Shown: positions 1 to 34,477, numbered from the stretch's first letter. The stretch is DNA of 34,477 nt from Escherichia coli (GCF_003334815.1 NZ_QOWO01000039.1), one strand, 5' to 3'. The notes: a model not told the origin generated them from the letters alone. Numbers and translations: made by a program.

Positions 1-211
1 ATCGACGATTGCTGGAAAGGCTGGGCCATACTCCTCCGGCAGAAGCAGAAAAAGCTTATTATGCTTCCATCGGAAACGATGATCTGGCAGCCTGAGTTCA
101 CAGATAAAACACTCTCCAGGAAACCCGGGGCGGTTCAGGAGGGCATCTTTAGTTACAAGCACCCAGACTAACCCTTGCCACAATAAACAGGCATGAACAC
201 TGACTGCTATT

Positions 212-245
212 GTAAGGCATTAACGGAGTCCGTATTGACGCTTAC
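212..245. repeat. IS66-family-like palindromic terminal repeat (gtaaggcattaacgg...ccgtattgacgcttac); orientation and parent element unresolved
   Basis: Its reverse complement begins gtaagcgtcaatacgg, matching the IS66 left end at 5142 (gtaagcgtcaacgggg) and the remnant right end at 8044-8077 (taagcgtcaatacggtgctccgttgacgcttac). Near-palindromic like the 8044-8077 end. Confidence 0.45.
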
Positions 246-279
246 GCTCAAGTCGCGACTAATACAACTAAATGAATGA

Positions 280-308
280 TTAACAGCTCAGCTAAACGGA
301 GCTGTTAA
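280..308 (-). terminator. Putative terminator hairpin downstream of lutC (perfect 10-bp inverted repeat ttaacagctc/gagctgttaa, 9-nt loop)
   Basis: Inverted repeat read directly; lies about 25 nt past the lutC stop on the minus strand; the U-tract after the stem is weak. Confidence 0.3.
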
Positions 309-331
309 TCGTATATACATACTAAAATGTA

Positions 332-1027
332 TTAGCAGTCATCAATAATCAAGTAAGTTGCATGTACTGGTCCATGCACACCAACAACTTTGATCAGTTC
401 TATATCTGCAGTAGAACTTGGGCCTCCAATCAGATTGATACAGGAAGGCAGTCGTTGTCCTTCCTGAGCCATTTCATGAAGTTTTTGCGCAAGCTGAGCC
501 ACTCGGGGGAGAATAGTGCTTTTGCGTAAAACAAATAATGATGCTTCAGGCAAAAGGCTTACTGAGCGCCCACGTTCTGGTGCGGAGAATAAGACAATGC
601 CTCCTGATTCTGTCAGCCCATACTCAGCGAAAACGACACCAGTTTTTGCCTTTTCAGCAAGATGGATATTTTCATCGCCCTTCTCCGGATCCCACAGAGC
701 AGCGTCCATTTCTTTTTGTAGCAATGGCGTAATCCCTGTATCGACCAGTCGTTGATCGTTGCTGATAATGACTGGCCCGGAACCGAACTTCCAACAGATG
801 TCTAAGGCTGTTGATGGTGCGTTCTCAGGCGACACCAGAACACACTCGGCAAGCATCACTTCCGAGGCAAATTTAATAAACGCCTCACAGCGTTGGTCTG
901 ATGTCAACTCTGTTAAACGTGTCGTAGCCAGCGTATTTACAGGCTCCGGCATTGCTTCGGGAATATGTCTTACTGGTCTGCCAAGCTTTCTGGCGATCGC
1001 AACGAGAAATTCCTCTCTGTTTTCCAT
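332..1027 (-). CDS. lutC: Lactate utilisation protein C (LutC/YkgG family)
   Basis: 231-aa ORF, last gene of a tightly spaced lutA-lutB-lutC arrangement; conserved C-terminal block ...AEYGLTESGG..LFS..ERGRS.SLLPE.SLF.LRKSTI.PR... resembles E. coli YkgG as recalled from memory. Confidence 0.85.
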   Translation of the reverse strand: MENREEFLVAIARKLGRPVRHIPEAMPEPVNTLATTRLTELTSDQRCEAFIKFASEVMLAECVLVSPENAPSTALDICWKFGSGPVIISNDQRLVDTGITPLLQKEMDAALWDPEKGDENIHLAEKAKTGVVFAEYGLTESGGIVLFSAPERGRSVSLLPEASLFVLRKSTILPRVAQLAQKLHEMAQEGQRLPSCINLIGGPSSTADIELIKVVGVHGPVHATYLIIDDC

Positions 1028-1030
1028 AAA

Positions 1031-2446
1031 TTACCCCTCCTTCTTATGTCGCTTGAACCAACTACGGAAGCTTTCTCCATCAGGTGATGGCAGGTCTCTG
1101 GCTTCAGTCCATTCTTTTATCGCTCCAACACTAATCGGCGTTTTTCCTTTCCTGATGAACAGACGGGCTGTTTTGGCCCCAGCAACCATACCTACCTTCC
1201 ACAACGCCGGATGGCTGTTTATGTAATTGAATGCTCTGGTTATACGGCGTTCCGTTAATGGTGTGATTTCAGACTCTGCCATAACCTGGCGATGTTTTTG
1301 TATTAGCGTTGCCAGAGGTATTTTTACAGGACATACCCCATTGCAGGCAGTGCACAATGAGCAGGCATAGGGTAAATCCTTAAAGTCTTCATATCCACCA
1401 AGCAATGGGGAAATAACCGCACCGATTGGCCCCGGGTAGATTGAACCATAACCATGCCCACCAATCTGACGATAAGCCGGGCAGGTATTAATGCAGGCAC
1501 CGCAGCGGATACATCGCAATACATCGCTGAATTCTGAGCCGAGAATCTCTGAACGCCCATTGTCAACAATAACGAGATGGAACTCTTCCGGACCATCAAC
1601 ATGTCCTTCTTCTCTGGGGCCTGTAAGCCAGGTGTTATAACCTGTCAGTCTCGCCCCGACAGCACTCCTTGCAAGCATGGTAATCAGAACATCCACCTCC
1701 TGGAATGTCGGAGCAATACGCTCCATACCCATAACAGCAATATGTGTTTTAGGTAATGTGGTGCACATCCGTGCGTTGCCTTCGTTTGTAACAAGGCAGA
1801 CTGACCCTGTTTCTGCAACGGCAAAGTTACACCCCGTTACGCCAACTTCAGCACTCAGAAAATCTTGTCTGATTTTCTCACGGATGAACAATGTCATTGC
1901 TTCTGGAGTTTCAGGCCCGTCATACCCCAGATGTTCATGTAAAACTCTGCGGATTTGATGGCGATCTTTATGTATTGCCGGCACAACCACATGCGATGGT
2001 GGCTCATGTGCTAGCTGAAGAATATATTCCCCAAGGTCCGTTTCAATCACGGGTATCCCGGCTTTCTGAAGAACGGCATTCATGCCAATTTCCTCAGTCA
2101 CCATTGATTTGGATTTAACAACCTTCCTGGCGTTTTTTTCTTTCGCCACCTTCAGTATGTAACTGGTTGCATCCTCTCTGGTACGGGCAAAATATACATG
2201 CCCGCCATTCGCAGTAACCTTTTCGGACAATTGATACAAATAAGCATCAAGATTTTCCAGAACATGCCGACGAATCTGTTCAGCTCGTGAACGCCATTCC
2301 TCCCAGTGTCCCAGTTCATCAACCATTTTCTGTCGATTAGTCCCTATGCGCTCCTGTGCGTTAGCCACAGCTTTTCGCATGATCGGGTCCTGAATCTGAA
2401 TACGGATACGCTCTTTAAACCTGATATCACTTGTTTTCAAAGACAT
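1031..2446 (-). CDS. lutB: Lactate utilisation protein B (LutB/YkgF family), 4Fe-4S iron-sulfur protein
   Basis: 471-aa ORF with ferredoxin-type cysteine motifs CIRCGACINTCP and CSLCTACNGVCP; 3-bp gap to lutC and 10-bp gap to lutA. Confidence 0.9.
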   Translation of the reverse strand: MSLKTSDIRFKERIRIQIQDPIMRKAVANAQERIGTNRQKMVDELGHWEEWRSRAEQIRRHVLENLDAYLYQLSEKVTANGGHVYFARTREDATSYILKVAKEKNARKVVKSKSMVTEEIGMNAVLQKAGIPVIETDLGEYILQLAHEPPSHVVVPAIHKDRHQIRRVLHEHLGYDGPETPEAMTLFIREKIRQDFLSAEVGVTGCNFAVAETGSVCLVTNEGNARMCTTLPKTHIAVMGMERIAPTFQEVDVLITMLARSAVGARLTGYNTWLTGPREEGHVDGPEEFHLVIVDNGRSEILGSEFSDVLRCIRCGACINTCPAYRQIGGHGYGSIYPGPIGAVISPLLGGYEDFKDLPYACSLCTACNGVCPVKIPLATLIQKHRQVMAESEITPLTERRITRAFNYINSHPALWKVGMVAGAKTARLFIRKGKTPISVGAIKEWTEARDLPSPDGESFRSWFKRHKKEG

Positions 2447-2456
2447 TCTGTTTACC

Positions 2457-3176
2457 TCATCTGTGCATCAGGACTTCAGCAATATGCATCACTTTTACAG
2501 GATGCCCTTCACGGTTAAGCCGACCGCCGATGTTTAGCAGGCAACTGGCGTCAGCCCCGATAAGAAAATCAGGTTTAACATCCATAATATGCCCGACTTT
2601 CTCTTTCACCATTTCACCAGAGATCTCCGCCATTTTTACAGAGAATGTGCCGCCAAACCCGCAGCACGTTTCCTGAGCGTGAAACGGCAGTAGCTCAAGC
2701 CCCTGTACATTCTCAAGTAGCAAAAGCGGCTCTCTGGTTACACCCAGCTTACGGGAAAGGCTGCAGGAGGGATGGTACACAGCGCGACCATTGAGTTTTG
2801 CCCCAACATCTGTGATGCCAAGATGATTTACTATAAATGATGTCAAATCATGCAGGCGTTCAGCCACTTTTTCAGCTCGTGCCGCCCACTCAGGTTCTTC
2901 ACTGAGATAGCGAGCGTAATTTTTTATCGTGTAAGTGCATGACCCGGCAGGAGATACTACCGGCCAGTCATTCTCTTCCAGCGAAGATATGAGATTTTTC
3001 ATGCCCGGGATGGCATCACGAACATAACCGCCATTTATCGCTGGCTGACCACAACATCCCTGCTTTTCGGGGAAATGGACATTGCAACCCAATTGCTCCA
3101 GTAACAGCACACTCTTTTGTGCCATCCGGGATTTAAACGCATCACCAATGCAGGTGACGAAAAAGTTAACATTCAC
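2457..3176 (-). CDS. lutA: Lactate utilisation protein A (LutA/YkgE family), cysteine-rich Fe-S oxidoreductase subunit
   Basis: 239-aa ORF; N-terminus MNVNFFVTCIGD... and CCG-type cysteine motifs (GCCGQP, CCGFGG) typical of YkgE/LutA; first of the three lut genes. Confidence 0.9.
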   Translation of the reverse strand: MNVNFFVTCIGDAFKSRMAQKSVLLLEQLGCNVHFPEKQGCCGQPAINGGYVRDAIPGMKNLISSLEENDWPVVSPAGSCTYTIKNYARYLSEEPEWAARAEKVAERLHDLTSFIVNHLGITDVGAKLNGRAVYHPSCSLSRKLGVTREPLLLLENVQGLELLPFHAQETCCGFGGTFSVKMAEISGEMVKEKVGHIMDVKPDFLIGADASCLLNIGGRLNREGHPVKVMHIAEVLMHR

Positions 3177-3225
3177 AGAAATTTCTCCTGTTGATTAATA
3201 TTCCACGTCCTTTTGTTGTTTTTTC

Positions 3226-4782
3226 TCAGGCCATGAACAGGTGGTAGACAAGGCCTACTTTCAGTCCAAGAATAACAATATAAGCAAAGCAGTACTTCAG
3301 TGTTCCTGACATGATTACGCTGCCCTGACCATCCATACGGGTGGCTGAAACAGCGATAGCAATACTCTGAGGAGAAATCATTTTGCCGCCTGTTGCGCCA
3401 GATGTATTTGCGGCAGCCAGCCAGAGCGGGTCCACATGCAATTTTTCAGCCGCAGTAGTCTGCAATTTACCAAACAGAATGTTGGAGTTTGTGTCACTAC
3501 CAGTAACAAATGTACCAAGAGCGCCGATAACCGGAGCAATGAAGAGGTAGGCCCCACCAGTCAGATCCACAAGGCTCTGTGCCAGAGTGCCAATCAACCC
3601 ACAGACATCCATTACCGTTGCCATGGCAACAATCGCAGAAATGGCAATAATGGAGTTTTTAAGTTGTTTTACCGTGCTGACAAATACGTTTAACAGGCAT
3701 GACAGGGATGCTTTCTGTATCAAGCCGCCAATAACACTGGCAATGATAATCAGAACACCGGGGGTTGCGATCCATTCAATTTTCATCGACAGATTGCTGC
3801 CGTTACTCAGAGAGAAGGTGAGTGACGAGGCAATCTGAGACACTGCACTTTTTATCGTCGGGAACAGTGGAGAGCAAAGCAGAATGAACAGAAAGATCAG
3901 AATGTAGATTGAGCACGCACGTAACAACGCCCCACGAGAGTATGAAAGTGCGCTGGCGCTATCTGCTGAACTCTCAATAAGAAATTCAGGTTCTGTTTTT
4001 TCTTTACGGTTTTTTGCCATAAAGACTATAACGATCAGACTGACAAGACTTCCTGCGAAAGCCGGGAGCTCTGCGCCAAGATTAACAGCCACCAGATACT
4101 GAGGTATCAATGTGCTAATACCGCACATCAGGGTAATTAACCCTACGCCTCGTATAGCTTTCATACCTCCACCGATAATCGTGACGATAACGAAGGGGAG
4201 CAGAATGTTGAACAGTGCCAGCTGAAGAATAATCGTCCCGCTGAGTGTGGTTACAGGTAAATTAACTTGTTCAGCAAGCACGGAGACAGGTATACCGACT
4301 GCCCCAAACGCTGTAGGGACTGTATTAGCAACCAGTGATGCAATCGCTGCTTTTAGTGGGTTAAAGCCCAGTGCAATGAGTATACCTATGGGGATTGCTA
4401 CCGCTGTACCGTATCCGGCGGCCGCCTCAAGAAATCCGCCAAAACACCATGAGATAAGAAGAACCTGGATGCGTTTATCGTCACTAACGCTCGCCAGAAC
4501 ATTTCTCAGAATATCCATGCTTTTTGTCGCATTCATCAGGTTATAGCTGTAAATGGCAGCAAGGATGACAATCACAATCGGCCACAAACCTTTGATTGCG
4601 CCGTATACCACAGCAGATCCCATATCCATAACTGGCGTCTGCCAGAAAACCCCTCCAAGGATTAGCGTGAGCAGGAGAGTGCTAAGCACAGAATAGTGTA
4701 TGGGCATTTTGACTTTCAGAATCAAAATGATCATCGCCAGAAGGGGGGTAAGTCCCAGTAAAAAAAGCAGGTAATCGTGCAT
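3226..4782 (-). CDS. lctP: L-lactate permease (LctP family), polytopic inner-membrane transporter
   Basis: 518-aa highly hydrophobic ORF with multiple predicted transmembrane segments, directly upstream of lutABC on the same strand (49-bp gap); RBS aaggaa before the ATG. Confidence 0.8.
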   Translation of the reverse strand: MHDYLLFLLGLTPLLAMIILILKVKMPIHYSVLSTLLLTLILGGVFWQTPVMDMGSAVVYGAIKGLWPIVIVILAAIYSYNLMNATKSMDILRNVLASVSDDKRIQVLLISWCFGGFLEAAAGYGTAVAIPIGILIALGFNPLKAAIASLVANTVPTAFGAVGIPVSVLAEQVNLPVTTLSGTIILQLALFNILLPFVIVTIIGGGMKAIRGVGLITLMCGISTLIPQYLVAVNLGAELPAFAGSLVSLIVIVFMAKNRKEKTEPEFLIESSADSASALSYSRGALLRACSIYILIFLFILLCSPLFPTIKSAVSQIASSLTFSLSNGSNLSMKIEWIATPGVLIIIASVIGGLIQKASLSCLLNVFVSTVKQLKNSIIAISAIVAMATVMDVCGLIGTLAQSLVDLTGGAYLFIAPVIGALGTFVTGSDTNSNILFGKLQTTAAEKLHVDPLWLAAANTSGATGGKMISPQSIAIAVSATRMDGQGSVIMSGTLKYCFAYIVILGLKVGLVYHLFMA

Positions 4783-5360
4783 GTCATTTCCTTAAACGAA
4801 AACAAAGTCAGCATCATTACTGTGGTTATTGATAGTTTCCACGCCCTGTCGGACGAGAGTGTTTATTTATCAGGGGGAGAATGAGTATCGTCTCCAAAAT
4901 TGGGATGTTCTTATAAAGTATTTTTTAGTTTAAAAAATATAGCTGAATCGTTTCATTGTTATCTTCCATGAATAAATGTTATGAAATAATACTTTTTGGG
5001 TATTTTTTGTTTATGCGTGTAACACTTGTGTGCTATCCCGATATAACCTTAAGACTGGAGTTGCAACTGGAGCTCGTCGAAAATCAACGCCCAAATCCTC
5101 GACAAATGGAGAAAGAGAATGAGCAATATCACCAGGAATAGGTAAGCGTCAACGGGGATGAAATACGGGGATTACCGGAGTCAGAGCGTCTTGCCGTCAG
5201 GCAGCAGCGAAGCAAAGTGTTACTGACGTCACTGCATGAATGGATGGTGGAGAAGAATGGTACGCTGTCGAAAAAATGTAAGCGTCGTCTGAGTACCGTC
5301 TGGTCCCGAATCCAGGATCCTGTAACTTAAGCACCCACTTATTTTGCAGGTGGACACCTC

Positions 5361-5744
5361 ATGCGCGCTAAAGAAAGACTTCCCCGGAAACACTATTCCC
5401 CTGAATTCAAAATGGAACTGGTCAGGCTGGCTCTTGAAGAAGAAGGCAGTATTGCCGCACTGGCCCGGAAACATGACGTCAATGATAACCTGCTCTTTAA
5501 ATGGATAAGGCTCTGGCAGCGTGAAGGGCGGGTCTGTCGGCCCCGAAAAAACTCATCGTCGCTTCCTGCCCTGATACCCGTGCAGCTTCAGGCGGGCTCT
5601 TCTCTCCCAACCTTCGAACTACCATCCTGCTCTCCTCCCGCTACCTGCCACATAAAATGTCGGGGAGGAGAAATAACACTGACTCATCCCTCTGCTGAAC
5701 TCATGAGCACTGTCCTGCGCGAACTGATGCGGGGGCCTGTATGA
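5361..5744 (+). CDS. tnpA: IS66-family accessory protein OrfA (TnpA)
   Basis: 127-aa ORF, first in the IS66-type three-gene arrangement; its stop overlaps the orfB start (ATGA). Confidence 0.8.
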   Translation: MRAKERLPRKHYSPEFKMELVRLALEEEGSIAALARKHDVNDNLLFKWIRLWQREGRVCRPRKNSSSLPALIPVQLQAGSSLPTFELPSCSPPATCHIKCRGGEITLTHPSAELMSTVLRELMRGPV

Positions 5745-6088
5745 TAAATCTTCCCGCAGGCACAAAAATCTGGCTGGTTGCCGGTATCACCGATATGCGC
5801 AACGGCTTCAATGGCCTCGCCGCAAAGGTGCAGACCGCGCTGAAAGATGACCCGATGTCCGGCCACGTCTTCATCTTCCGGGGACGCAGCGGCAGTCAGG
5901 TAAAACTGCTCTGGTCCACCGGCGATGGTCTGTGCCTGCTGACAAAGCGACTAGAACGTGGTCGCTTCGCCTGGCCCTCAGCCCGCGATGGCAAAGTGTT
6001 CCTGACGCCGGCGCAACTGGCGATGCTGATGGAAGGTATCGACTGGCGACAGCCAAAGCGGTTACTGACATCCCTGACCATGTTGTAG
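5741..6088 (+). CDS. tnpB: IS66-family accessory protein OrfB (TnpB)
   Basis: 115-aa ORF translationally coupled to orfA; precedes the transposase gene. Confidence 0.8.
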   Translation: MINLPAGTKIWLVAGITDMRNGFNGLAAKVQTALKDDPMSGHVFIFRGRSGSQVKLLWSTGDGLCLLTKRLERGRFAWPSARDGKVFLTPAQLAMLMEGIDWRQPKRLLTSLTML

Positions 6089-6137
6089 CGCTCTTTATCC
6101 TGGTTGTCGCAGAATAAGCCTGGTAAAATACAGGCTT

Positions 6138-7672
6138 ATGAACGACACCTCTTCTGACGACATCCTTCTGCTGAAACAGCGCCTGGCCGAACAGGAAGCG
6201 TTGATCCACGCCCTGCAGGAAAAGCTGAGCAACCGGGAACGCGAAATAGACCATCTGCAGGCGCAACTGGATAAGCTGCGCCGGATGAACTTCGGCAGTC
6301 GTTCCGAAAAGGTATCCCGCGTATCGCGCAAATGGAAGCTGACCTGAACCTGCTGCAGCAGGAAAGCGATACGCTGACCGGCCGGGTGGATGACCCGGCA
6401 GTGCAGCGCCCGCTGCGTCAGACCCGCACCCGCAAACCGTTCCCTGAGTCACTCCCACGGGATGAGAAGCGGCTGCTGCCGACTGAGCCGTGTTGCCCGG
6501 AGTGCGGTGGTTCGCTGAGTTACCTGGGTGAGGATGCCGCCGAACAGCTGGAGCTGATGCGCAGCGCCTTCCGGGTTATCCGGACAGTCCGTGAAAAGCA
6601 TGCCTGCCGTCGGTGCGATCGCATCGTTCAGGCCCCGGCTCCTTCGCGCCCCATCGAACGGGGGATCGCCGGACCGGGGCTGCTGGCCCGAGTGCTGACC
6701 TCAAAGTATGCAGAGCACATACCGCTGTATCGCCAGTCGGAGATCTATGCCCGCCAGGGTGTAGTGTTGAGTCGTTCTGTACTGTCGGGCTGGGTGGATG
6801 CGTGTTGTCGTCTGCTGGCACCGCTGGATGAAGCCCTTCAGCACTATGTCCTGACCGACGGCAAACTCCATGCTGACGATATGCCTGTCCCGGTGCTGTT
6901 GCCGGGCAATAAGAAGACGAAGACCGGGCGCTTATGGACGTACGTTCGAGACGACCGCAACGCCGGATCAGCGCTGGCCCCCGCAGTGTGGTTCGCTTAC
7001 AGCCCGGACAGAAAAGGTATCCACCCTCAGACCCATCTTGCAGGCTTCAGTGGCGTACTGCAGGCTGATGCCTACGCCGGGTTCAACGAGCTCTACCGCG
7101 ACGGCCATATAAAGGAAGCCGCGTGCTGGGCCCATGCCCGCCGAAAAATCCACGATGTTCACGTCCGTACCCCGTCAGCCCTGACGGAGGAGGCGCTGAA
7201 ACGGATCGGCGAGCTGTATGCCATCGAGTCGGAGCTCAGAGGTAAAAGAGCAGAGGAACGGCAGGCAGTCCGGCACCAAAAAGTGCTGCCGCTGCTGGCG
7301 TCACTGGAGGGGTGGCTGCGGGAGAAACAGAAAACCCTCTCAAGGCACTCAGAACTGGCGAAGGCGTTCGGGTATGCGCTGAACCAGTGGCCGGCGCTGA
7401 CCCGCTATGCAGAAGATGGCTGGGTGGAGGTGGATAATAACATTGCCGAAAACGCCCTACGACTGGTCAGTCTGGGGAGAAAAAACTGGCTGTTCTTCGG
7501 CTCGGATCATGGTGGTGAGCGCGGTGCGTCACTGTACAGTCTTATCGGGACGTGCAAATTAAACGGCGTGGATCCGGAACGCTATCTGCATCATGTACTT
7601 GATGTCATCGCCGACTGGCCTGTGAACCGGGTGGGTGCTCTGCTCCCGTGGCGGGTTACTCTGCCTGCCTGA
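6138..7672 (+). pseudogene. tnpC: IS66-family transposase (TnpC) split by a frameshift near 6330-6347
   Basis: Track ORFs 6138..6347 (N-terminal coiled-coil/leucine-zipper-like segment) and 6332..7672 (zinc-finger-like CxxC...CxxC, catalytic core, C-terminal ...LLPWRVTLPA) overlap in different frames and together make one IS66-type transposase. Confidence 0.75.
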
Positions 7673-7713
7673 CCAGCTTCACTTCGTCAATACGGTTCTC
7701 ACTGCACGCTTAC

Positions 7714-8047
7714 GAAAAAATCCAGACTGGGCGAAGCGTTCAGCTATGTACTGAATCAGTGGGATGCCCTCTGTTATTACAGTGATGACGGTCTGGCGGA
7801 GGCGGATAATAATGCTGCGGAAAGAGCGCTTCGTGCAGTCTGTCTCGGAAAGAAAAACTTTATGTTCTTTGGCAGCGATCACGGCGGCGAGCGTGGAGCA
7901 CTGTTGTACGGGCTGATCGGCACCTGCCGTCTGAACGGTATCGATCCGGAAGCGTATCTGCGCCATATCCTGAGCGTACTGCCAGAATGGCCTTCCAACC
8001 GAGTTGATGAACTCCTGCCATGGAACGTAGTACTCACCAATAAATAA
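7714..8047 (+). pseudogene. Truncated IS66-family transposase, C-terminal ~110 codons only
   Basis: In-frame translation of 7714-8047 matches the C-terminal region of IS66 TnpC; there is no N-terminal part and no orfA/orfB upstream. Confidence 0.7.
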
Positions 8048-8077
8048 GCGTCAATACGGTGCTCCGTTGACGCTTAC
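7714..8077 (+). mobile_element. 3' remnant of a second IS66-family element: partial transposase C-terminus plus palindromic right terminal repeat
   Basis: Starts immediately after the first element's right end; encodes ...FMFFGSDHGGERGALLYGLIGTCRLNGIDPEAYLRHILSVLPEWPSNRVDELLPWNVVLTNK, diverged from the intact copy's C-terminus; ends in a repeat whose reverse complement is gtaagcgtcaacgg... Confidence 0.7.
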
Positions 8078-8125
8078 AGTTTTTTCAGAAGACGGCAAAG
8101 TAGAGATGGCTGGTTCAGGTTCAGA

Positions 8126-8270
8126 GCATGAGTTTCCCCGGTGTGACGGGCATGGCGGGGCGGATTTTGCAGATACAAAAGACGTAAAAAAACCGACTGG
8201 TGAGGCCGGCTTTTTTACTGTTACGCTACAAAGTTGATGACTCTGACCAGAAAAGAGCTGTCTATAACTG
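8126..8270. repeat. Repeat family copy A (~145 bp) with a 19-codon ORF (8128-8187, MSFPGVTGMAGRILQIQKT) and a terminator-like hairpin
   Basis: Aligned by eye to copy C over about 145 bp from catgagt...cccggt...ggcatgg.gggcggatt through the hairpin to gaaaag...tct. Confidence 0.6.
8186..8216. terminator. Bidirectional intrinsic-terminator-like hairpin (A7-ccgac-tggtgag-gccggc-T6) in repeat copy A
   Basis: GC stem flanked by an A-run on one side and a T-run on the other, so it can terminate on either strand. Confidence 0.5.
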
Positions 8271-8554
8271 ACGCTAAAAATGATAATTTGTTCTACCTGA
8301 TTAATGCAACATGCCATAAGTTTACGGGAAAGGCTGACCACCTGATATTGTTGCAAAATACGAAAGTCGTCAAAATCGCGGTGGGGAGCTTGAGGCTGTA
8401 AGCTGAAAGCGTTTGTGAAAGCCCCGGGAGATTGTTCTATCAATCAACCAAGGGCTCTACTGTAATGCCTAGACAACATTATAGTAGCCCGCTGACGTCC
8501 TCCACGCCAGAGGGAGCTTGCTACGTACAGCTTGTCGTTACTCAGAAGTAATAA

Positions 8555-8625
8555 ATGTAAAAAAACCGACTGATGAGGTCGGTTTTCTTACTGTTCCGTT
8601 ACAGAGTTGGTGGCCCTGACTGGAG
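8555..8625. repeat. Repeat family copy B (partial: hairpin plus conserved downstream segment only)
   Basis: gtaaaaaaaccgactgatgaggtcggttttcttactgttccgttacagagttggtgg matches the terminator-proximal part of copies A and C; the small-ORF part is absent. Confidence 0.5.
8559..8589. terminator. Terminator-like hairpin in repeat copy B (A7-ccgac-tgatgag-gtcgg-TTTTCTT)
   Basis: Perfect 5-bp GC-rich stem with flanking A-run and T-rich run. Confidence 0.4.
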
Positions 8626-8745
8626 GAAATCTCTTTTCAGCTAACGTTCTTATAATAGTGTTCTGTTCATTTGATAACAACCACCCTTGTAATCCGCAGG
8701 TTAGCACTGTCTGGCGACACTTCTGTCGTGATGACGGTAACCAGA

Positions 8746-8892
8746 ACATGAGTCTTCCCGGTATAACAGGCATGGTGGGGCGGATTTGCAGAAACAACAG
8801 ATGTAAAAAAACCGACTGGTGAGGTCGGCTTTTTTACTGTTCCGCTACAGAGTTGGTTGCTCTGGGCGGGAAAAGACAGTCTGTATCTAACA
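8746..8892. repeat. Repeat family copy C (~145 bp) with a 24-codon ORF (8748-8822, MSLPGITGMVGRICRNNRCKKTDW) and a terminator-like hairpin
   Basis: Same unit as copy A; the small ORF shares its first 13 codons with copy A, then diverges through a 1-nt indel. Confidence 0.6.
8805..8835. terminator. Bidirectional intrinsic-terminator-like hairpin (A7-ccgac-tggtgag-gtcgg-c-T6) in repeat copy C
   Basis: Perfect stem with A-run and T-run on either side. Confidence 0.5.
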
Positions 8893-8953
8893 TAATCAAT
8901 TCTATGCTTTGTCCCACACTATGTCAAAAATCCTGCTAATCAAAAAAGAGATC

Positions 8954-9130
8954 TCACGTTAAAAATTTGTACCCTTCTTTAACTTCCAGTGCCTGCTCCT
9001 TTGACTCAAACATCAGTCTTGTTTTCCCGGGAACACCCCATGAAATGTATTCAACATCTATCCACCATTTTCCATATTCTTCATATGGCCCGGATATTAC
9101 TTTTTTGACAAAGGCGTCTACCAGATTCAT
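8954..9130 (-). CDS. Hypothetical small protein (58 aa, MNLVDAFVKKVISGPYEEYGKWW...)
   Basis: Internal ATG of track ORF 8954..9238, preceded by aaggaaaaaaca-ATG (RBS-like); the upstream part of the track ORF has no RBS and looks non-coding. Confidence 0.4.
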   Translation of the reverse strand: MNLVDAFVKKVISGPYEEYGKWWIDVEYISWGVPGKTRLMFESKEQALEVKEGYKFLT

Positions 9131-9515
9131 TGTTTTTTCCTTTTTGTGTTGAAAATAATTAATGCCAGAGCACAGCGAAAATAATGAATGCGCTGGCTGT
9201 GATAATTGCGATTTTCTCCCATATGATATTTTTCTCATGGGGGTTTCTACGGAGATTATTTCTTCGCATTGAGATACCGGTATTCATGTTTTATCTTGGA
9301 CTTTTGTTTTGTTGTCTGTCTGGCAGGCTGTTCTGCGCCCGTTTGTGACAAGGTTAGCTTATGGGGTTAAATGGTCACGGACATCATGCGGACGGTTCCC
9401 TGTCACATGCCATCTGGTTTTTTCATTCAAATTGAGAGATATTGCTAAGTTGAGTCGCTTGCGATAGTGGACTCCTGTTTGTAAGTGAGTGCCATTGTTT
9501 ATTTCATGAAGAGGA

Positions 9516-9731
9516 TTGATTATGAGCATGCCTCCTGCGATAGCTAATACTTTCTTGTTTGAAATGATGAAGAGTAAATCAAAAGACGTTACACTTGCTG
9601 CGATCTATGCATTAGGTGAAGGCCGGTGTCAGGCGGAGAACATTACTCGTGAATTACATAGATTGAGTCAAAGTGATGATATGGAAATAAAAATTGCTGC
9701 GATTAAAGCACTTGGTCGAATTTATCGGTAA
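9516..9731 (+). CDS. Hypothetical small protein with two HEAT/PBS-lyase-like repeats
   Basis: 71-aa ORF with tandem AAIYALGEG / AAIKALGRI motifs; aagagg-like RBS upstream; the true start may be one of the nearby in-frame Met codons. Confidence 0.4.
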   Translation: MIMSMPPAIANTFLFEMMKSKSKDVTLAAIYALGEGRCQAENITRELHRLSQSDDMEIKIAAIKALGRIYR

Positions 9732-9761
9732 CGGCATAAGTTATCTGTTGTAATGAACAAA

Positions 9762-9783
9762 AGCCGGCTCATTTGAACCGGCT
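9762..9783 (-). terminator. Putative terminator hairpin just after the excA stop (agccgg-N10-ccggct, then a U-rich tract on the minus strand)
   Basis: 6-bp GC stem about 20 nt past the minus-strand excA stop, followed on that strand by uuuguucauu. Confidence 0.4.
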
Positions 9784-9802
9784 GTTATGGAGGGAGCTTA
9801 TC

Positions 9803-10465
9803 TTAAAATACTTCGGCTACAGGCATGCCTGCAATCTGCTCCCACTCCTTACGCTTTTCCTGAATCAGGCGAGGAAAGTCGACAGGGTAATCATATCCTC
9901 GACTTGCCATTGCGTGCATGGTGTTTGATGCTGTTTCTGGATGAGCACACCATGATGGAACAGGAACCATTGGCAGATTGATGTATTTCGTATGAATTTC
10001 CAGTTTTTTGTCGTCTGTTACAGTACGAGTGAAATTATGAATGTCAAAACCGATAACATCCATAATGTTGCCTGGATAGATACGGACATACAACATTGTG
10101 CCATTTTTAAGGTCAATGCCGAAATAAGCTCCCTGGGTTAAAGATAATCCCTCATACCCCTTCTCTGGAGAGTAGAAGCCTGACTCTTTTATTGTTTGTA
10201 CAACTTTTCTTATTTTTTCTCTCCTTGTTTTTGCACGTGAGTACATCCATATGCCTGGCGCAAGTAATAAGAACCAACTACCGAAAGTGACAACATAATC
10301 TTCGACCTTATTTCCGAAATAACGATCAGAACATAGCATTTCGGTAAAGCCTAATGCGCAGAACAGAAAAAAAGGTATTCCAAGAAAGAAATAAGCTTTT
10401 CTTAATACATAATAAAATAGCCACCAGGTTGGAAATCTGTCTGTTGTTTCTTTTTTAGCTTTCAT
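9803..10465 (-). CDS. excA: Inner-membrane protein at the ExcA (entry-exclusion) position of IncI-type transfer regions
   Basis: 220-aa ORF with two N-terminal hydrophobic segments, last gene of the minus-strand tra block directly after the DotA-like gene; assignment is positional. Confidence 0.45.
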
Positions 10466-10535
10466 ATAATGCCTCCCCTCGTACTATCTATTATTTTAAT
10501 GCCGATGGGGAGGTTGTGCAATATTTATATTGATA

Positions 10536-12704
10536 TTATCCTTTTATTCCGTCCTTGTCGTCACTTCCTTTTGTATTATCTTTAAGACGATCTGTTTTCA
10601 TTCCAGGAGTATGTCGGATATTGCGACTTCCTCCAATAAATATTTCTTTAACAGAATTTGCCATGCTGCCAAGCGTGTTGGCTCCATCACTTCCCCCTAG
10701 GAAGTTAATAACATGATCAGGTAGGTAGGCCTGAAGGGCAAATATGGCAGCTACAGTGGTTGTACAAATTCTGGCGTATATCAGCAAGAAACCAGCAAGA
10801 CTGAAAATACCGGTCAGCGAATTGAACTGTACGTTAACCAGGGCAGCGCCAAATAATGCATTCAGTATTGTGCCTACGGCGATGATGGCTACAGAAGCAA
10901 AGAAAAAACCAAAGACCATGATGGGCGGCCTTATCATACTATCAATTAAGTATATATAACCGTAGGCTGCCCGACTTCCTCTGTCTTCTGATGTCCCGAG
11001 ATGTGTTGCAGCCCACAGCGGCCCGGCGGTACATCCTATTAATACGCTGACTATCCAGTTCCCGATGCCTGTCATCCAGAAAATAAACGGAATGAATGGC
11101 AGGTAAATTGATAAGGAAAATCCAGCACAGAACATCAGGAACAAAAGAAAATAAACAGGTGGTGCAAGTGCTTCAAACAGCGCGGTAAGCATCGAAGCGG
11201 CACCTGTTAGTGAGTTAAAGAATTTTACAAGAATTGAATCTTTGCCACCGGCAACGACAACTCTGGCCGTTGTATATATAGTCCAGATTCCTTCTGCACT
11301 TACCATTGTTATATCTCCGATATTTTTCATTTTTATCAGAGGATTAATTTGAGCACTGGTTGTGCCTGTGCCACTTGTTTCCGTTGCAATCCTGTTAGTG
11401 AGACTAACAAGGGGGCCCATAATTTCAGACAAGGCAGATTTCGGATCTTGTGCATTTGCCATGCGTTGTTCACTGGATGATACTACTGTGCCCAGCGGTG
11501 GCGTATAGGAGGAATTCTGCAGTTGCGTCCTATAGGCACTCATGACCGCACTGAATAAGTCAGTATCACCAACTTCTCCCAGTGATGACATTGAAGTTAC
11601 AGCTGGAGCTCTGTCAGCCAGCTCTGCCAGACGCTGGTTAGCAGTGGCAAAGGTCTGATACCATGCGCCAAGCGTTACCCACCCGTAGGTTGTGAGATAA
11701 GATTTAAGAGCCTCTTTTCTGGATTGCTCTCCGTTATCAGTGGGTAGCGATTTTTGCACAGCACGTTCGTATTCGTCGGCTGCTTTCTGAATTCGTGTCT
11801 CGATATCCGGCAGTGTTCCGTTGCCAGAATTTCTTTTTTCCAGAAATGTTGTCACAAACTCACTGGCAGCGTTGTCCATGTCGCTAATCATATTATCCAT
11901 GGCTGCACGTTGTGCTGAGATAACACCGCTGTACTCGTTTTTACTGAAGGGATTAAAGAATTTTCCAATCGTCGACTGATCTGTTGTTCCGTTTCCTTCT
12001 ACTGACAGGCTGGCTGTACCACAGATACCGCTGCCATTGGATACCGTGACAGTGTAATTACCACTGGCGGTTTTAGCTGATTCTGTCATCAGTGAAGTCG
12101 AGGATTTGGCGGTCTGATTAAAATCATTTAGTCCTGCGTTAACCGCATACTTACATAGTTCCATTTCAAAAATGCCACGCGCAGCTGTTCGTGTGGATGC
12201 CTGAACTGGCTGTACAGTCATTGAATAACCATTTGCGATATTATCAGCGGCAACTTGCACCATCACATTGGCGGACCCAACCCCCATTATCGATGCGCCC
12301 CATAACATAATGAGCTGAGCGAGACTCCAGCCATTTCCGGTAGGAACGATCATCAGAAAGCCTGCGACGAAACTCAGTATGCCGACAATATCGCGCCCGA
12401 CGCTGAATACCTGTCCCTGATGCCCCGAACGCACAACATGGCGGATACTAATGAAGATACACCAGACGATAGCAAGTACGGCAATGATATTGTTGAACAC
12501 CCAGAACATGCTTCCGATCAGGGTGGGGTCGCTGGTTGACAGTGGATTGGTGACCACATCACCGAATATCGTGACCAGCGCCTGGCGGGACAGATCGTCA
12601 GGATTGGTGGCGGCAGACACAATATCCTGATAGGTCACTGAAGCCATTGCCGGCAGTGAGGATATAGCAAGGCCTGCACAGAGTGCGCGAAGTAAAATTT
12701 TCAC
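10536..12704 (-). CDS. traY: DotA/TraY-like polytopic integral membrane protein of a type IVB secretion/conjugation system
   Basis: Large ORF with signal-peptide-like N-terminus and many hydrophobic segments. Start set at the GTG at 12704 (ggag-N6-GTG giving MKILLRALCAGLAISSLPAMA); the track ORF runs up to 12773 without an RBS. Confidence 0.6.
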   Translation of the reverse strand: MKILLRALCAGLAISSLPAMASVTYQDIVSAATNPDDLSRQALVTIFGDVVTNPLSTSDPTLIGSMFWVFNNIIAVLAIVWCIFISIRHVVRSGHQGQVFSVGRDIVGILSFVAGFLMIVPTGNGWSLAQLIMLWGASIMGVGSANVMVQVAADNIANGYSMTVQPVQASTRTAARGIFEMELCKYAVNAGLNDFNQTAKSSTSLMTESAKTASGNYTVTVSNGSGICGTASLSVEGNGTTDQSTIGKFFNPFSKNEYSGVISAQRAAMDNMISDMDNAASEFVTTFLEKRNSGNGTLPDIETRIQKAADEYERAVQKSLPTDNGEQSRKEALKSYLTTYGWVTLGAWYQTFATANQRLAELADRAPAVTSMSSLGEVGDTDLFSAVMSAYRTQLQNSSYTPPLGTVVSSSEQRMANAQDPKSALSEIMGPLVSLTNRIATETSGTGTTSAQINPLIKMKNIGDITMVSAEGIWTIYTTARVVVAGGKDSILVKFFNSLTGAASMLTALFEALAPPVYFLLFLMFCAGFSLSIYLPFIPFIFWMTGIGNWIVSVLIGCTAGPLWAATHLGTSEDRGSRAAYGYIYLIDSMIRPPIMVFGFFFASVAIIAVGTILNALFGAALVNVQFNSLTGIFSLAGFLLIYARICTTTVAAIFALQAYLPDHVINFLGGSDGANTLGSMANSVKEIFIGGSRNIRHTPGMKTDRLKDNTKGSDDKDGIKG

Positions 12705-12800
12705 AGTAACTCCGGAATAGAATTGCGTATGGGCAAAGGCCACACAGGATTTAATTAAGGGGGATGGCGACATGCCAGTGGTACTGGCATCTGGACGTGA

Positions 12801-13385
12801 TCAGTATTGTTTACTGGTTACGGCAATTAATGTGGCATTGCGCCAGCCATTGCGGTAGTTCAGAAAATCACGGAAAGTCCCCTGCTCGGGTTCGCTGACT
12901 TTTCGTTCATGCAACTGCCAGAGGCGGTATGTAACTATCAGAGCTCTGGAAGCACAAAGAGCGACGCCTGACAGAATCAACACAAGAGTGCTGATGGCGC
13001 GTACCTGTGTCATCAAAGGTAATGAGGAGGCGGCAAAGAGCATACCGCTGAGGAATAAAGCGATGGCCAGCAGACTCCAGCAGCATAACCGCCATACTGT
13101 TCTGCGCCGGCGGAAACGACGATCCAGGTCGTCTACTGACATATGGCTGGCCTGCAGAGCTTCTTCCCACGAGAGGCAGAGTTGCGCCTTTTTATTATTT
13201 ACCTGACGAAATTTTTCCAGCCTGCTTTTTTGTTGCTTCAGCATATGCTGTACAGAATTCGTTATCAGGCGAGTCTCCATCAGAGGAACAAAAATGTTAA
13301 TAATCCTCCGGGTGGCTATGCGGGTTATGGATAGTGATTTTTTGACGTTTTTCGTCTGGTCTGAATTTTCCGGTAACTTATTCAT
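12801..13385 (-). CDS. Membrane protein at the TraX position of the tra block
   Basis: 194-aa ORF with C-terminal hydrophobic helices; co-directional and tightly packed with neighbours. Confidence 0.5.
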   Translation of the reverse strand: MNKLPENSDQTKNVKKSLSITRIATRRIINIFVPLMETRLITNSVQHMLKQQKSRLEKFRQVNNKKAQLCLSWEEALQASHMSVDDLDRRFRRRRTVWRLCCWSLLAIALFLSGMLFAASSLPLMTQVRAISTLVLILSGVALCASRALIVTYRLWQLHERKVSEPEQGTFRDFLNYRNGWRNATLIAVTSKQY

Positions 13386-13413
13386 TGTTTCAGTCCTGTT
13401 CTGACGTCAGCTT

Positions 13414-14616
13414 TCAACGTGCGTTTGCCTGATTGATTGTTTTCTCAAGGCTACCGAGTTGTTTTTCATAATACTGGCGGGCAGTCAGAGCCAGTTGCTG
13501 GCCAGAGATAACATTACCCTGGCGGATCTGTTCTTTCAGATCGTTCAGCTGCCAGTTCATTTGCGCAGTGATTCTTACCAGTTCACGGAGCAGGTTATCC
13601 CCCTGCATTTCCTGTAAATCCACCAGGTATGCTGTGTTGGCGTAGCGCCGGCCAGCCTCAAAAGCTTCAAACTCACGGGTACTCATATATCCCCGTGCTT
13701 TTGCTTCTGGTGAAGCCACTTGGTCGAAGTAAGCGGCCGCTGAGTCTGACTGCAGTGTTTCAGCCAGTGCTTTACGTGTGCTTTCATTAGGCGTGCTGTC
13801 AGCAATCAACGTCAGTTGGGGATTCGACGCAGAATCAATGATGCCGTTGTATTCGTTCTGGAGTCCGACGTAGGTTCGCCCACTCTGGGTATTCACTTCT
13901 CCTTTACCCAGAGCACGACCGGCAGAGGGGCGGGAAGTGTTTTTCATGTAAGCAGTCGCTGCATCTATTTGCTTCTGATCCCATGTCAGTGCCGCAGGTG
14001 TGTCCGCTGTACCTGCGCCGTGGTAAATCGAGCGTACCTGACTGTCTCCACCTGGTATTTCGCCCACAGAAGGACAAACGGCGGTTCCTCCAAAACGTGC
14101 ATATTCTGCTTCTGTACAGTAACTGGCGTGTATGGCCGCGCCATCATAAGCTTCCCGCACGGGAGAGTTTGCTGCGCTGGCCAGACGGTCGCGGATGCTA
14201 CGGTTGCTCACACCGCCACCTTTACTGAGTTTTGAGGCTGCGGATGCTGAGGCACTTTTGCTTACTGTTGCAATCCCTGATGCGGATTCACTGCAGATGG
14301 AGTCTGGCACGGTGAAGCTTTTCCGTGCCTCCTCGAGGCGCTGAGTTTCATTACTGAAAATCATCTGCTGACGTGTCGCCTGTCCGTTCTGGGCAATGAC
14401 ACTTGCCAGCTTTTCAGAGTTCTGATTGATAGCGGTACCCGTGGCTGTCTGGGTACTCAGTATGTCACTCAGCACACCTTTGATGGCCTCCATTCTGGGG
14501 ACGACCTGCTGTTCAACGGGACGGCTGGCGACGACGGTGACTGAATAAGCATGAGCCTGGTATGCCGTTCCATTCAGGATAGCTATAAGGGCTGCGAGTA
14601 ATGTTTTTCTTTGCAT
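13414..14616 (-). CDS. Secreted/periplasmic protein at the TraW position
   Basis: 400-aa ORF with N-terminal signal peptide MQRKTLLAALIAILNGTAYQAHA; overlaps the upstream gene by 34 nt. Confidence 0.5.
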   Translation of the reverse strand: MQRKTLLAALIAILNGTAYQAHAYSVTVVASRPVEQQVVPRMEAIKGVLSDILSTQTATGTAINQNSEKLASVIAQNGQATRQQMIFSNETQRLEEARKSFTVPDSICSESASGIATVSKSASASAASKLSKGGGVSNRSIRDRLASAANSPVREAYDGAAIHASYCTEAEYARFGGTAVCPSVGEIPGGDSQVRSIYHGAGTADTPAALTWDQKQIDAATAYMKNTSRPSAGRALGKGEVNTQSGRTYVGLQNEYNGIIDSASNPQLTLIADSTPNESTRKALAETLQSDSAAAYFDQVASPEAKARGYMSTREFEAFEAGRRYANTAYLVDLQEMQGDNLLRELVRITAQMNWQLNDLKEQIRQGNVISGQQLALTARQYYEKQLGSLEKTINQANAR

Positions 14617-18100: not shown

Positions 18101-18241
18101 TGGGCGACGTTCACGATCCTGTCTGTCCAGACCAATTACAGTACGTAAATCGCAATACTCAACAAAACTGCTTGCGACAGAGAAACGGGATAGCGTGTTC
18201 AGACAGTCTTCGATAGTGAAGATTAAACGGTTTATGTTCAT
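15197..18241 (-). CDS. traU: DotO/IcmB-like type IVB secretion ATPase (TraU-type)
   Basis: ~1014-aa protein with Walker A-like GDPGLGKS. Start set at the ATG at 18241 (ggag upstream); the track ORF extends to a TTG at 18334. Confidence 0.7.
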   Translation of the reverse strand: MNINRLIFTIEDCLNTLSRFSVASSFVEYCDLRTVIGLDRQDRERRPWLNSPYIAATKRGEYLSVFEVSGAFREMDEASDQTGPGSLESLITSMSDSLNTAYKNSGHKISFVFERDPDMGKEEIEDMVAPQKRSLANTGIQLQDVVDEKVTTLSPWLVRERCWLAIWSGPDLISNSDRTAHDELVRRLAERVPKARFAQSPWQWTLSALKIRHEAFLDNVEQALRHSSDGLILRLLDIHEVGREIRRQTERHSTPRNWQPHLPEDAQPAGYRWTDDESVLHAPSLHLQLFNTQVTTQGNLVQAGGLWHGMVSITLPPQNLQTFNELVRAVPRAVPWRIRMDLMPGGMKALNLKKTLLTYSSFISAVRPMYESVMALAATDEKEPVCIMTIMASTWGKTREICTRNQAILKSAIEGWGVCGTTTTFGDPRRAWVNTILAASGGSGPVPLYPPLSHAISLFPLNRAGSVWRGKGNLMLHTEDGSAIEVGLASSQQNKHTELAPGDPGLGKSVLINTLSEIQISSAQKNLPFIAYIDKGYSAQGLVQLIRDSLPPERKDEAVGIILSNDPEYTRNLFDVMYGAKKPITPEKNFMSSVLCALCVDTGTGQPCNPGDTRQIINQLIELAFKEYGENNPRLYRASTEELVDSALQDSGLYEKHDATWWARSTWFEVRDMLHNAGYIMAAQRAHYQAMPQLPEVSSMLGHTSLRDVFGTVQRDGSNELLLDYIRRALEQGHNDYPMISGYTRFMINPETRVIAVDLNNVAGDKTPAGRLKTGIMYLLAGQIAGGDFTLPQYRDEVLKQLPREYHEIALKRINQLDQEVKTKVYDELHNARGIDFIWENLDTQEREQRKFAIRTVLSTQYLRDYPESVLKSANTLWLLRYKPEDIPVLRDNFNVPEFMLKRFLKMPEGPAPDGSGVPVLGVFRVKSGTLARILKFTVGPLELWALNSSPKDSALRKTLTNKLGSVRARKILAENFPRGSATSLIEHRAGQHNSDNVIEELASELIRKQGYNL

Positions 18242-18330
18242 AGGTGAGGGAACTCCGGACTTACAGGAGGGAGGTTTGTGCAGTTTGATTTTTTTAATGC
18301 CACCCCGCGCTGGAGTGGCATGAAGAAAAA

Positions 18331-19131
18331 TCAATCAACGTATTCTTTTTTGATGAATGAATCTGGTGTCAGAATCAGGGCAATCCCGTTCATTTTTTCA
18401 CGCAGGGGCGAACGACCGGAAGGTGGATAGCGACGAAAAACGTCAGCGAAATCGGCCGGGCGGAAACTGCGGAATTTATCCTCAACCGCCAGTCTGTTTT
18501 GCATCAGTGCAGAGAGCGCTTCCCGTCCCCGCCGGACCCGGAACTTATCATTACTGAAAACTTCCTGTAATGAACGACGGTTAAGGGCCACGACCGTGGA
18601 TGGATGAAGGTCGGGTAGCCACACCATAACGCCCTGTGCTGCGGCATAACCATTCAGTGAATGCCAGGCGTGGCAGAAAGCACATAAGCTGTAAGGCGGG
18701 CCGTCTTCATGAAACAGTTCCTGCTCTTTCTCTGACAACGACTCTGTACTGGTGATTTCAGCTTTCTGTACATGGCGGAGTGAAAGACGTCTGGCAGACA
18801 GACGGGCCTGCTCAAGCGCCCGTTCAGCGGCTTTTACTGCCGTGTTGTACTTTTCCTTTTCGCCGGTTGCGACTGGTTCACCACGCTTTTTTAACTTATC
18901 CAGATGTTCTGTGGCCTTATTAAGACGAACTCGTGTGTCACTGATTGTGTCGGTAAGCTGTCTGAGTGGCCATGAGTCATCCAGTCTGAAACGGTGCCTG
19001 ACGTTTTGCCGGCAGCAGATACATCGACCGGGCGTTGTTAATTCCGGTTCCGGTAACAGTGGCTCCTGTGTATGAACCACATCAATTTCTGGAAAGGGAT
19101 ACAACCACAAGTCTTTAATGCTGTGTTGCAT
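18331..19131 (-). CDS. Protein at the TraT position, with Cys clusters (CICCRQ..., CAFCHAWH)
   Basis: 266-aa ORF in the operon; possible zinc-binding cysteines. Confidence 0.45.
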   Translation of the reverse strand: MQHSIKDLWLYPFPEIDVVHTQEPLLPEPELTTPGRCICCRQNVRHRFRLDDSWPLRQLTDTISDTRVRLNKATEHLDKLKKRGEPVATGEKEKYNTAVKAAERALEQARLSARRLSLRHVQKAEITSTESLSEKEQELFHEDGPPYSLCAFCHAWHSLNGYAAAQGVMVWLPDLHPSTVVALNRRSLQEVFSNDKFRVRRGREALSALMQNRLAVEDKFRSFRPADFADVFRRYPPSGRSPLREKMNGIALILTPDSFIKKEYVD

Positions 19132-34414: not shown

Positions 34415-34477
34415 CTTATTGATAGTGTTTTATGTTCAGATAATGCCCGATGACTTTGTCATGCAGCTCCACCGATT

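Follow-up and report, generated by a model that had tools for sequence, protein, structure and literature searches.

A lactate-utilisation operon as the probable cargo of an IS66-family-bounded compound transposon on conjugative plasmids of Escherichia coli

In a 34,477-nucleotide (nt) stretch of Escherichia coli DNA (GCF_003334815.1, NZ_QOWO01000039.1; hereafter the window), the lactate-utilisation genes lctP-lutABC lie between two sequences that look like the ends of insertion sequences (IS) of the IS66 family, one at positions 212-245 and one starting at 5142. The locus raises the question of whether the genes have been moved by such elements and, if so, where the moved segment begins and ends. 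Classical compound transposons such as Tn5, Tn9 and Tn10 carry their cargo between two IS and use the outermost repeats as ends; members of the IS66 family are usually treated as plain insertion sequences. Our comparisons indicate that lctP-lutABC is probably the cargo of a compound transposon bounded by IS66-family elements and residing on a conjugative plasmid of incompatibility group I1 (IncI1). As read from the sequences, this unit is about 12 kb long, has two different IS66-family IS as its bounds and would have entered at least two kinds of conjugative plasmid. The original prediction, that the lactate genes had travelled as an IS-bounded segment, is borne out insofar as they are IS66-bounded cargo, but its boundaries and its left-hand element were wrong: the terminal sequences at 212-245 and 5142 are real and the genes do lie between them, but neither is an end of the unit.

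The unit begins, 6.3 kb to the left of window position 1, with the left inverted repeat of an ISCro1-like element (the names ISCro1, IS682, ISEc23 and IS679 are those of the RefSeq annotation). On the right, the 3' end of an IS682-like tnpC gene and the right inverted repeat of that element occupy 7714-8077 on the plus strand, and in this plasmid the unit ends on the right at 8077. Immediately outside lies one copy of the 8-bp sequence AGTTTTTT (8078-8085), the IncI backbone resuming at 8078, while the other copy adjoins the ISCro1-like left end (2698-2705 in comparison locus L001 and 3173-3180 in L002, the sister plasmid NZ_CP024481). The unit measures 11,760 bp in sister plasmids and 14,372 bp in the window's own plasmid, after two IS3-family insertions. 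The IncI empty site, rebuilt with a single AGTTTTTT, was 100% identical in 7 listed IncI plasmids and was covered to at least 80% in 1365 IncI plasmids, including the ColIb-P9-type NC_002122 at 99.7%. Together, the matching flanks and the empty site identify the 11,760-bp stretch as one insertion with an 8-bp duplication, and both of its junctions were found at 100% identity in four plasmids of PLSDB, one of them from E. fergusonii. A target duplication of 8 bp is tabulated for IS66-family elements (PMC3281130).

Read from left to right, the cargo consists of a DUF6882 gene, a stub of hsdR, the IS66-type scrap at 212-245, lutCBA-lctP, a stub of an oppA-like gene, and the IS682 remnant together with a further, nested IS66 element. 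The ISCro1-like left end (GTAAGCGCATC..., from L002 3181) pairs with the terminal ...CGCTTAC at 8077 or with the right end of the nested element at 7713, and three right ends within the unit have the common layout GTAAGCG, 10 nt, ACCGTATTGA.

The second of these pairings is found on pMB7355_2 (L019), a plasmid of incompatibility group F (IncF), which carries an 11,397-bp version of the unit, 99.75% identical, running from the same ISCro1-like left end to the right end of the nested element (window 7713). This version is flanked on both sides by TATTCCAC, within the first codons of a thermonuclease gene, and its ISCro1-like tnpC is intact. The rebuilt TATTCCAC empty site was 100% identical in many IncF plasmids and covered to at least 80% in 2306 plasmids; one plasmid with the empty site, NZ_CP024480, comes from strain 2011C-4315, which also holds the IncI lut plasmid. 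These uninterrupted sites in related genomes correspond to the whole unit, ending at 8077 or at 7713, and not to 212-5150, the segment that the original prediction had singled out.

The cargo block also has a chromosomal form. In the chromosomes of Shiga toxin-producing E. coli (STEC) 88-3493 and 2014C-4135 it is present without the ISCro1-like element and without the nested IS66 element, and the block, L002 5884-14940 and L004 (strain 88-3493) 6884-13496, runs from the first base after the ISCro1-like right end to exactly 8077. Altogether the unit was seen at more than one site: the IncI1 site, the IncF thermonuclease-gene site and the IncF hok/sok region. The anatomy of the unit, its chromosomal version and, at the IncI1 and thermonuclease-gene sites, both the duplication and the empty target are visible in the sequences compared, and two perfect duplications, two empty sites and two right ends make strong evidence for a compound transposon that is working or was working recently.

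We propose that an IS66-family transposase, most likely the TnpC of the ISCro1-like element, would bring together its own left end and, several kilobases downstream, a heterologous right end, so that the intervening block was inserted whole at AGTTTTTT and the 8-bp duplication made. In a second event, with the same left end and the nested right end (7713), the target would have been TATTCCAC on an IncF plasmid. A chromosomal island of the type found in STEC 88-3493 and 2014C-4135 is the apparent source of the cargo block, and a donor is predicted to carry the junction 'ISCro1 right end | GCTGAAATTTACACC' near cdiB-type chromosomal flanks. The acting transposase and the direction of transfer are inferred, and the common layout of GTAAGCG, 10 nt and ACCGTATTGA suggests that heterologous ends may be recognised. 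The sequences at 212-245 and 5142 are scars that older IS682-type insertions and deletions left inside the cargo.

Several observations weigh against this interpretation. The ISCro1-like tnpC and the nested tnpC are both annotated as frameshifted in the window's lineage, so that this copy cannot now move by itself, and a search of 5426 complete E. coli genomes revealed no donor with an ISCro1-like element at GCTGAAAT beside the chromosomal block. In plasmid p3RM8082 (L018), the full 11.8-kb unit lies between direct repeats of 764 bp from the hok/sok region (5417-6180 and 17941-18704; 98.6% identical, 11 mismatches) and has no 8-bp duplication, an arrangement that simple transposition does not explain and that may reflect recombination between two differently placed copies. 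Finally, in the Salmonella IncI-gamma plasmid CP093085 the AGTTTTTT site itself is taken up, in the same orientation, by a plain ISCro1-like element.

The last of these plasmids bears on the alternative that survives best, a two-step history. In it, a plain ISCro1-like element would first have entered an IncI plasmid at AGTTTTTT, making the duplication; the lactate block would have come in later, landing between the right end of that element and the right-hand duplicate, perhaps by way of a cointegrate with a block-carrying chromosome and an aberrant resolution at the right-end tips. CP093085 holds just such a plain element, with the exact site, duplication and orientation, and ISCro1-like elements cluster at the IncI region and at the IncF site. 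The copy in CP093085, however, is only 95.8% identical to the unit's copy while the left backbone is 99.3% identical, which argues for a separate insertion, and we read it as an apparently independent insertion at a hot spot and not as a precursor. The crossover would also have to fall inside the last 7 bp (CGCTTAC) common to the ISCro1-like and IS682-like right ends, and the IncF event, with another right end and its own perfect 8-bp duplication, would call for the same unlikely step again. We therefore regard the two-step history as unlikely, and return to the compound transposon.

Target choice agrees with an ISCro1-type movement of the compound transposon. The sites of the unit are places where plain ISCro1-like elements inserted independently, which fits ISCro1-type targeting of the unit, and at the IncF site three ISCro1-like left ends are found within 6 bp of one another, where the thermonuclease gene begins; for ISCro1-like elements as such, this suggests a very strong target preference. 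A broader proposal, that an ISCro1-type transposase routinely skips its own right end, pairs with diverged IS66 right ends kilobases away and selects targets with near base-pair precision, is one that we hold tentatively, with slightly less than even confidence. The individual positions are as follows: AGTTTTTT was hit in two IncI backbones in the same orientation (L002 3173-3180; L017 1275-1282 and 3984-3991), and the IncF left ends are at L019 6172-6179, at L021 about 4590-4597 with the duplication ATATATTC, and at L022 about 4590.

If the unit ends at neither 212-245 nor 5142, what are these sequences? The first is a 34-bp palindrome, tGTAAGGCATTAACGG-AGT-CCGTATTGACGCTTAC. As had been predicted, it and the tip at 5142 share the 11-mer core GTAAGCGTCAA, which occurs in the window, with at most one mismatch, at four sites (235-245 minus, 5142-5152 plus, 8044-8054 plus and 8067-8077 minus); shuffled windows averaged 0.36 sites and none of 100 shuffles reached four. 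The 34 bp are an orphan remnant, on the minus strand, of a right inverted repeat of the IS682/ISEc23 type, and the DNA to either side of them is not IS sequence. They align to the IS66 right ends in L009, L010 and L011, where GTAAGCGTTAACGGAGTGCCGTATTGACGCTTA is followed by the end of tnpC, and the concern that they might be an unrelated palindrome can be dropped: the scrap is IS66-derived.

The same matches bear on the orientation of the scrap: in them, intact elements run with the tip at 212 and would have the body to the right. The right ends examined have the common layout GTAAGCG, 10 nt, (A/G)CCGTATTGA. Read from 212, the scrap gives GTAAGGC, ATTAACGGAG and TCCGTATTGA, with the CCGTATTGA box present and the tip degenerate; from 245, it has a perfect GTAAGCG tip and lacks the conserved CCGTATTGA box. 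The tip most likely lies at 212. At the other side the IS homology breaks off at 244/245, a deletion junction. The right end at 8044-8077 has the same palindromic structure, and the palindromic look of 212-245 is a property of the right end in this subgroup. The 8 bp preceding the scrap, CTGCTATT at 204-211 (9 nt with the preceding A), also form the target duplication that flanks an intact but unrelated IS66-family copy in L009 (3502-3509 and 6042-6049), in a different gene; this may be target preference or coincidence.

The second sequence, at 5142, had been taken for the left end of an IS66-family element. It does carry an IS66 tip: GTAAGCGTCAA starts at 5142, and the 14-nt terminal motif GTAAGCGTCAACGG (5142-5155) is identical to the reverse complement of 8064-8077. 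Those 14 nt, however, are fused over microhomology to the middle of tnpC, that is, to the last approximately 480 bp of an IS682-like element. The nested element interrupts this tnpC fragment after its first part (5156-5277, plus strand); joined to 7722-8077, that part matches the terminal 487 bp of the NCTC9113 IS682 copy at 98.8% identity. Reading 5142-5157 as internal tnpC sequence was considered, a BLAST match having reached query position 6, and was rejected as microhomology only (CGTCAACGGGG versus CGCCATCGAGG); the true IS682 homology begins at about 5156. In all loci compared, GTAAGCGTCAACGG occurs elsewhere only as a right-end tip, and the left ends of IS682 are GTAAGCGTAAACTG. Since the motif is otherwise confined to right ends, the remnant has arisen either by internal deletion, with a variant left end, or by the fusion of two copies.

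No target duplication belonging to the 5142-8077 remnant itself was found, its flanks being AGGAATAG on the left and AGTTTTTT (plasmid) or CCTTTGCC (chromosome) on the right, and the 5142 junction was seen only in contexts with the lut block. We accordingly rejected a mobile miniature element with 14-bp perfect repeats at 5142-8077, for which neither plasmid nor chromosome has a duplication. Also rejected was a unit extending from the left arm of the palindrome to the IS682 end (212-8077), as it has no duplication (CTGCTATT versus AGTTTTTT) and no independent copies.

The nested insertion is a complete IS66-family element of 2436 bp (5278-7713, plus strand) between two 8-bp copies of GAAAAAAT (5270-5277 and 7714-7721). 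In the 88-3493 chromosome the same site is uninterrupted and GAAAAAAT is present in a single copy. The inverted repeats begin GTAAGCG, and the genes are, in order, tnpA (5361-5744), tnpB (5741-6088) and tnpC (6138-7672), all on the plus strand, with matches to NCBIfam models NF047595 (TnpA), NF033819 (TnpB) and NF033517 (transposase). The tnpC frame is broken by a 1-bp deletion (2436 bp compared with 2437 bp in other genomes), is annotated as frameshifted, and is split into 6138-6347 and 6332-7672.

The anatomy of the two tips speaks to a second alternative, implied by the original prediction, in which 246-5141 is itself mobile between an IS66 right end lying off the window to the left and an IS66 left end at 5142. 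The tips at 245 and 5142 do share GTAAGCGTCAA, and IS66-family ends are found 90-350 bp from lutC in L003, L005, L006, L007 and L014. Both tips, however, point away from the lactate genes and thus delimit no transposable segment, the right-end layout is better matched by 212-245 in the opposite orientation, and 212-5150 has no flanking duplication (CTGCTATT or GCTCAAGT versus AGGAATAG). The first 246 bp, which might have belonged to a further IS66-family element, are no part of one: 1-137 are IS3-family sequence, 138-153 belong to hsdR and 154-211 have no IS66 similarity. The ribosome-binding site and ATG proposed on the minus strand near 29 as the start of orfA fall inside the region coding for the C terminus of an IS3-family transposase on the opposite strand. 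The leftward extension of the sequence contains neither IS66 genes nor a tnpC 3' end immediately beside the repeat; the left neighbourhood of 212 is made up of the 58-bp spacer, the hsdR stub, the IS3-family element and the DUF6882 gene. At the other side, IS-free chromosomal copies extend beyond 5141 into the oppA-like gene. In the complete E. coli genomes and PLSDB, 212-5150 was found on no replicon as a separate unit. Mobility of 246-5141 on its own is very improbable.

Least probable of all is spread without transposition, by homologous recombination among shared IS66 scraps with the 8-bp repeats coincidental: the p3RM8082 unit between 764-bp repeats differing at 11 positions, the lut genes of pTD225C4_108 between two IS1 copies without a duplication and many further contexts without duplications would suit it, but the two independent perfect 8-bp duplications stand exactly at IS66 tips, their empty sites are 100% identical in many plasmids, the uninterrupted backbones hold a single copy of each duplicated 8-mer, and chance would give a single 8-bp match between two fixed positions about 1 time in 65,000.

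The genes carried by the compound transposon form one operon on the minus strand in the order lctP-lutA-lutB-lutC, a complete LutABC and LctP set. The predicted products are a 518-residue permease of the lctP lactate family (3226-4782; TIGR00795, 407.5 bits against a cutoff of 341), the 239-residue (Fe-S)-binding subunit LutA (2457-3176; two Pfam CCG domains), the 471-residue iron-sulfur subunit LutB (1031-2446; TIGR00273 LutB/LldF, 723.6 bits against a cutoff of 444.8) and the 231-residue LutC (332-1027; Pfam LUD domain, E = 7e-28; LutC/YkgG in RefSeq). Judging by family membership, the cassette would confer lactate uptake and oxidation.

Downstream of lutC, the flank at 246-331 is lineage-specific and contains an inverted repeat (280-289/299-308). 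In other lut lineages the matches start only at 330-335, the homology thus stopping at the lutC stop codon. Copies about 99.5% identical over the operon split abruptly at this point (326-340 versus L003, L007 and L008); LutC has 231 residues here and 232 elsewhere, and the hairpin downstream of lutC differs from lineage to lineage. At the opposite side of the operon, the divergent intergenic region between lctP and the oppA-like stub (4783-5118) is conserved in IS-free chromosomal copies. It is followed by the first 23 nt of the gene for an oppA-like peptide-binding protein (5119-5141, plus strand, ATG at 5119), which is cut at 5141/5142. The chromosome of 13E0767 matches window 335-5141 at 99.6%. 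Because the IS-free copies run on past 5141, the junction 5141/5142 is an IS-target junction inside a larger ancestral segment and not the edge of a lactate module. On the minus strand at 5125-5152, the IS66 tip provides a TTGACG -35-like hexamer facing lctP, with a weak -10 in the oppA-like stub; promoter-like matches in this region were no more numerous than in shuffles.

The window's sequence is shared by other plasmids, 1-5300 being 100% identical over its full length to RCS85_pI of E. coli ECOR 3 (NZ_LT985321.1, IncI1-type) and 138-5300 being 100% identical to several further plasmids. Positions 1-137 are the right end of an IS3-family element on the plus strand, with the last 31 codons of an annotated transposase coding sequence and its stop at 95. 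The element is 1310 bp long, a length by which we take it to be IS629-like, and is a late arrival in the unit: the sister plasmid NZ_CP024481 lacks any copy. In the parent plasmid the 1310-bp element occurs twice, as identical inverted copies, and each is flanked by a separate duplication of 3-4 bp. An inversion between them was considered and rejected, the separate duplications pointing to two simple insertions. Judged from a 4-bp alignment overlap at the insertion point, the right copy of one such duplication is GGAG at 138-141.

Next to the IS3-family element, 138-153 (plus strand) hold the last 15 nt, including the stop codon, of hsdR, a type I restriction gene; the assignment is based on L002 6912-7016, which matches the 3' ends of annotated HsdR genes at 87-93% identity. 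Full-length matches to the 58-bp spacer between the hsdR stop codon and the scrap (154-211, ending in CTGCTATT) were found in only 6 records, all with the lactate block; its last approximately 30 nt, on the scrap side, align weakly beside IS66 ends, and a sequence search found no IS66 similarity for 154-211 as a whole. In the IS3-free L002, the order leftward from the hsdR stub is the DUF6882 gene, a 150-bp scrap of an IS66 tnpC 3' end and the complete ISCro1-like element. To the right of 8077 there are only IncI1 backbone and transfer genes, from excA to traF, and the end of the window (34415-34477) lies inside an IS1A transposase gene just past traF. The backbone between the insertion site and excA contains direct repeats of about 75-115 bp that are 87-88% identical (8122-8236 versus 8742-8855 and 8543-8618 versus 8789-8864), and 8347-8491 resemble a sequence close to hok, across the insertion.

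How does the unit compare with known systems? Like Tn5, Tn9 and Tn10, it has a single duplication of family length around the whole unit and uninterrupted target sites elsewhere. Unlike them, its bounding elements are not one IS copied but different IS66-family members related at about 70-75%, one bound is a 0.5-kb remnant with a third, nested IS, there are two alternative right ends, and its sites coincide with independent plain ISCro1-like insertions. Read-through, or one-ended, mobilisation of the ISEcp1 and IS1247 type uses surrogate right ends, and the unit resembles these systems in having one left end with right-end-like sequences downstream, a normal duplication and a variable right boundary. 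It differs from them in that its surrogates are genuine IS66-family right inverted repeats, in the IS66 TnpC accompanied by TnpA and TnpB, and in the 8-bp duplication. The elements conform to ISCro1, IS682, ISEc23 and IS679 in the tnpA-tnpB-tnpC order, ends with GTAAGCG and 8-bp duplications (GAAAAAAT, GCTCATTT, CTGCTATT, AGTTTTTT and TATTCCAC); the properties of the IS66 family are reportedly set out by Han et al. 2001. Our literature search found no paper on a compound unit with cargo made up of IS66-family elements, and nothing directly relevant on an IS66 compound transposon with lactate genes or on mobilisation by ISCro1, IS682 or ISEc23. The unit is a compound transposon of a known kind for which we found no description, set apart by its mix of IS66 elements and its interchangeable right ends.

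The cassette itself is widely distributed. Most of the query is carried by approximately 204 of the 5426 complete E. coli genomes (about 4%) and by 61 PLSDB plasmids. Lineages at about 99.5% identity include a tRNA-Thr/integrase island beside hsdMSR (L003 and L005) and a cnf3 plasmid (L006), and lineages at 90-93% include pO113-type STEC plasmids and Salmonella plasmids (L007, L008, L014 and L015). An accessory island with lutABC(P), hsdMSR and oppA has been described in uropathogenic E. coli of sequence type 127 (ST127) and other sequence types (PMC9769692). As at the locus studied here, the neighbour next to lutC is hsdR and that next to lctP is a truncated gene for a peptide-binding protein, and the island matches L003 and L005, which are 99.6% identical to window 335-5141. 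That study describes an integrase-associated chromosomal island and suggests phage-mediated transfer; in contrast to the present work, IS66 ends, plasmid copies and target duplications were not analysed there.

Other IS are frequent around the cassette, which is flanked by IS1, IS3 and IS21 in some contexts. In the chromosomal-island lineage, 63 bp of an IS682 left end survive at a distance of 215 bp from lutC (L003 7740-7800), and the hsdR-lutC spacer has two more IS682-type insertions 40 bp apart, in L005 (duplication GCTCATTT) and L006. In the latter, the 127-kb plasmid pE100117_127, the toxin gene cnf3 is placed between IS66-family elements (2527-5568) and adjoins the lactate cassette. An IS1 compound transposon was considered for pTD225C4_108 (L016 3109-9742) and rejected; there are two directly oriented IS1A copies and no 9-bp duplication. 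The lactate cassette is a habitual resident of IS-rich accessory DNA.

The finding accounts for the presence of an accessory lactate operon on unrelated conjugative plasmids of E. coli and E. fergusonii and in chromosomal islands. It also carries a caution for annotation, in that IS ends beside a gene cluster may be internal scars and the true boundaries may be kilobases away. The overall interest is modest and chiefly concerns IS66 end recognition and targeting, for which the interchangeable right ends and repeated target hits provide handles on how ends are recognised and targets chosen. The locus offers a concrete case of IS66-family elements mobilising their neighbours, in a family that is abundant in pathogenic E. 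coli and whose mechanism is little studied. If the proposed joint behaviour of ISCro1-type transposases is true, the unit would be the first compound transposon of the IS66 family documented to carry cargo in nature, with a metabolic operon moved between chromosome, IncI and IncF plasmids, and the heaps of IS66 scraps in E. coli islands would be ready-made launch pads for adjacent genes.

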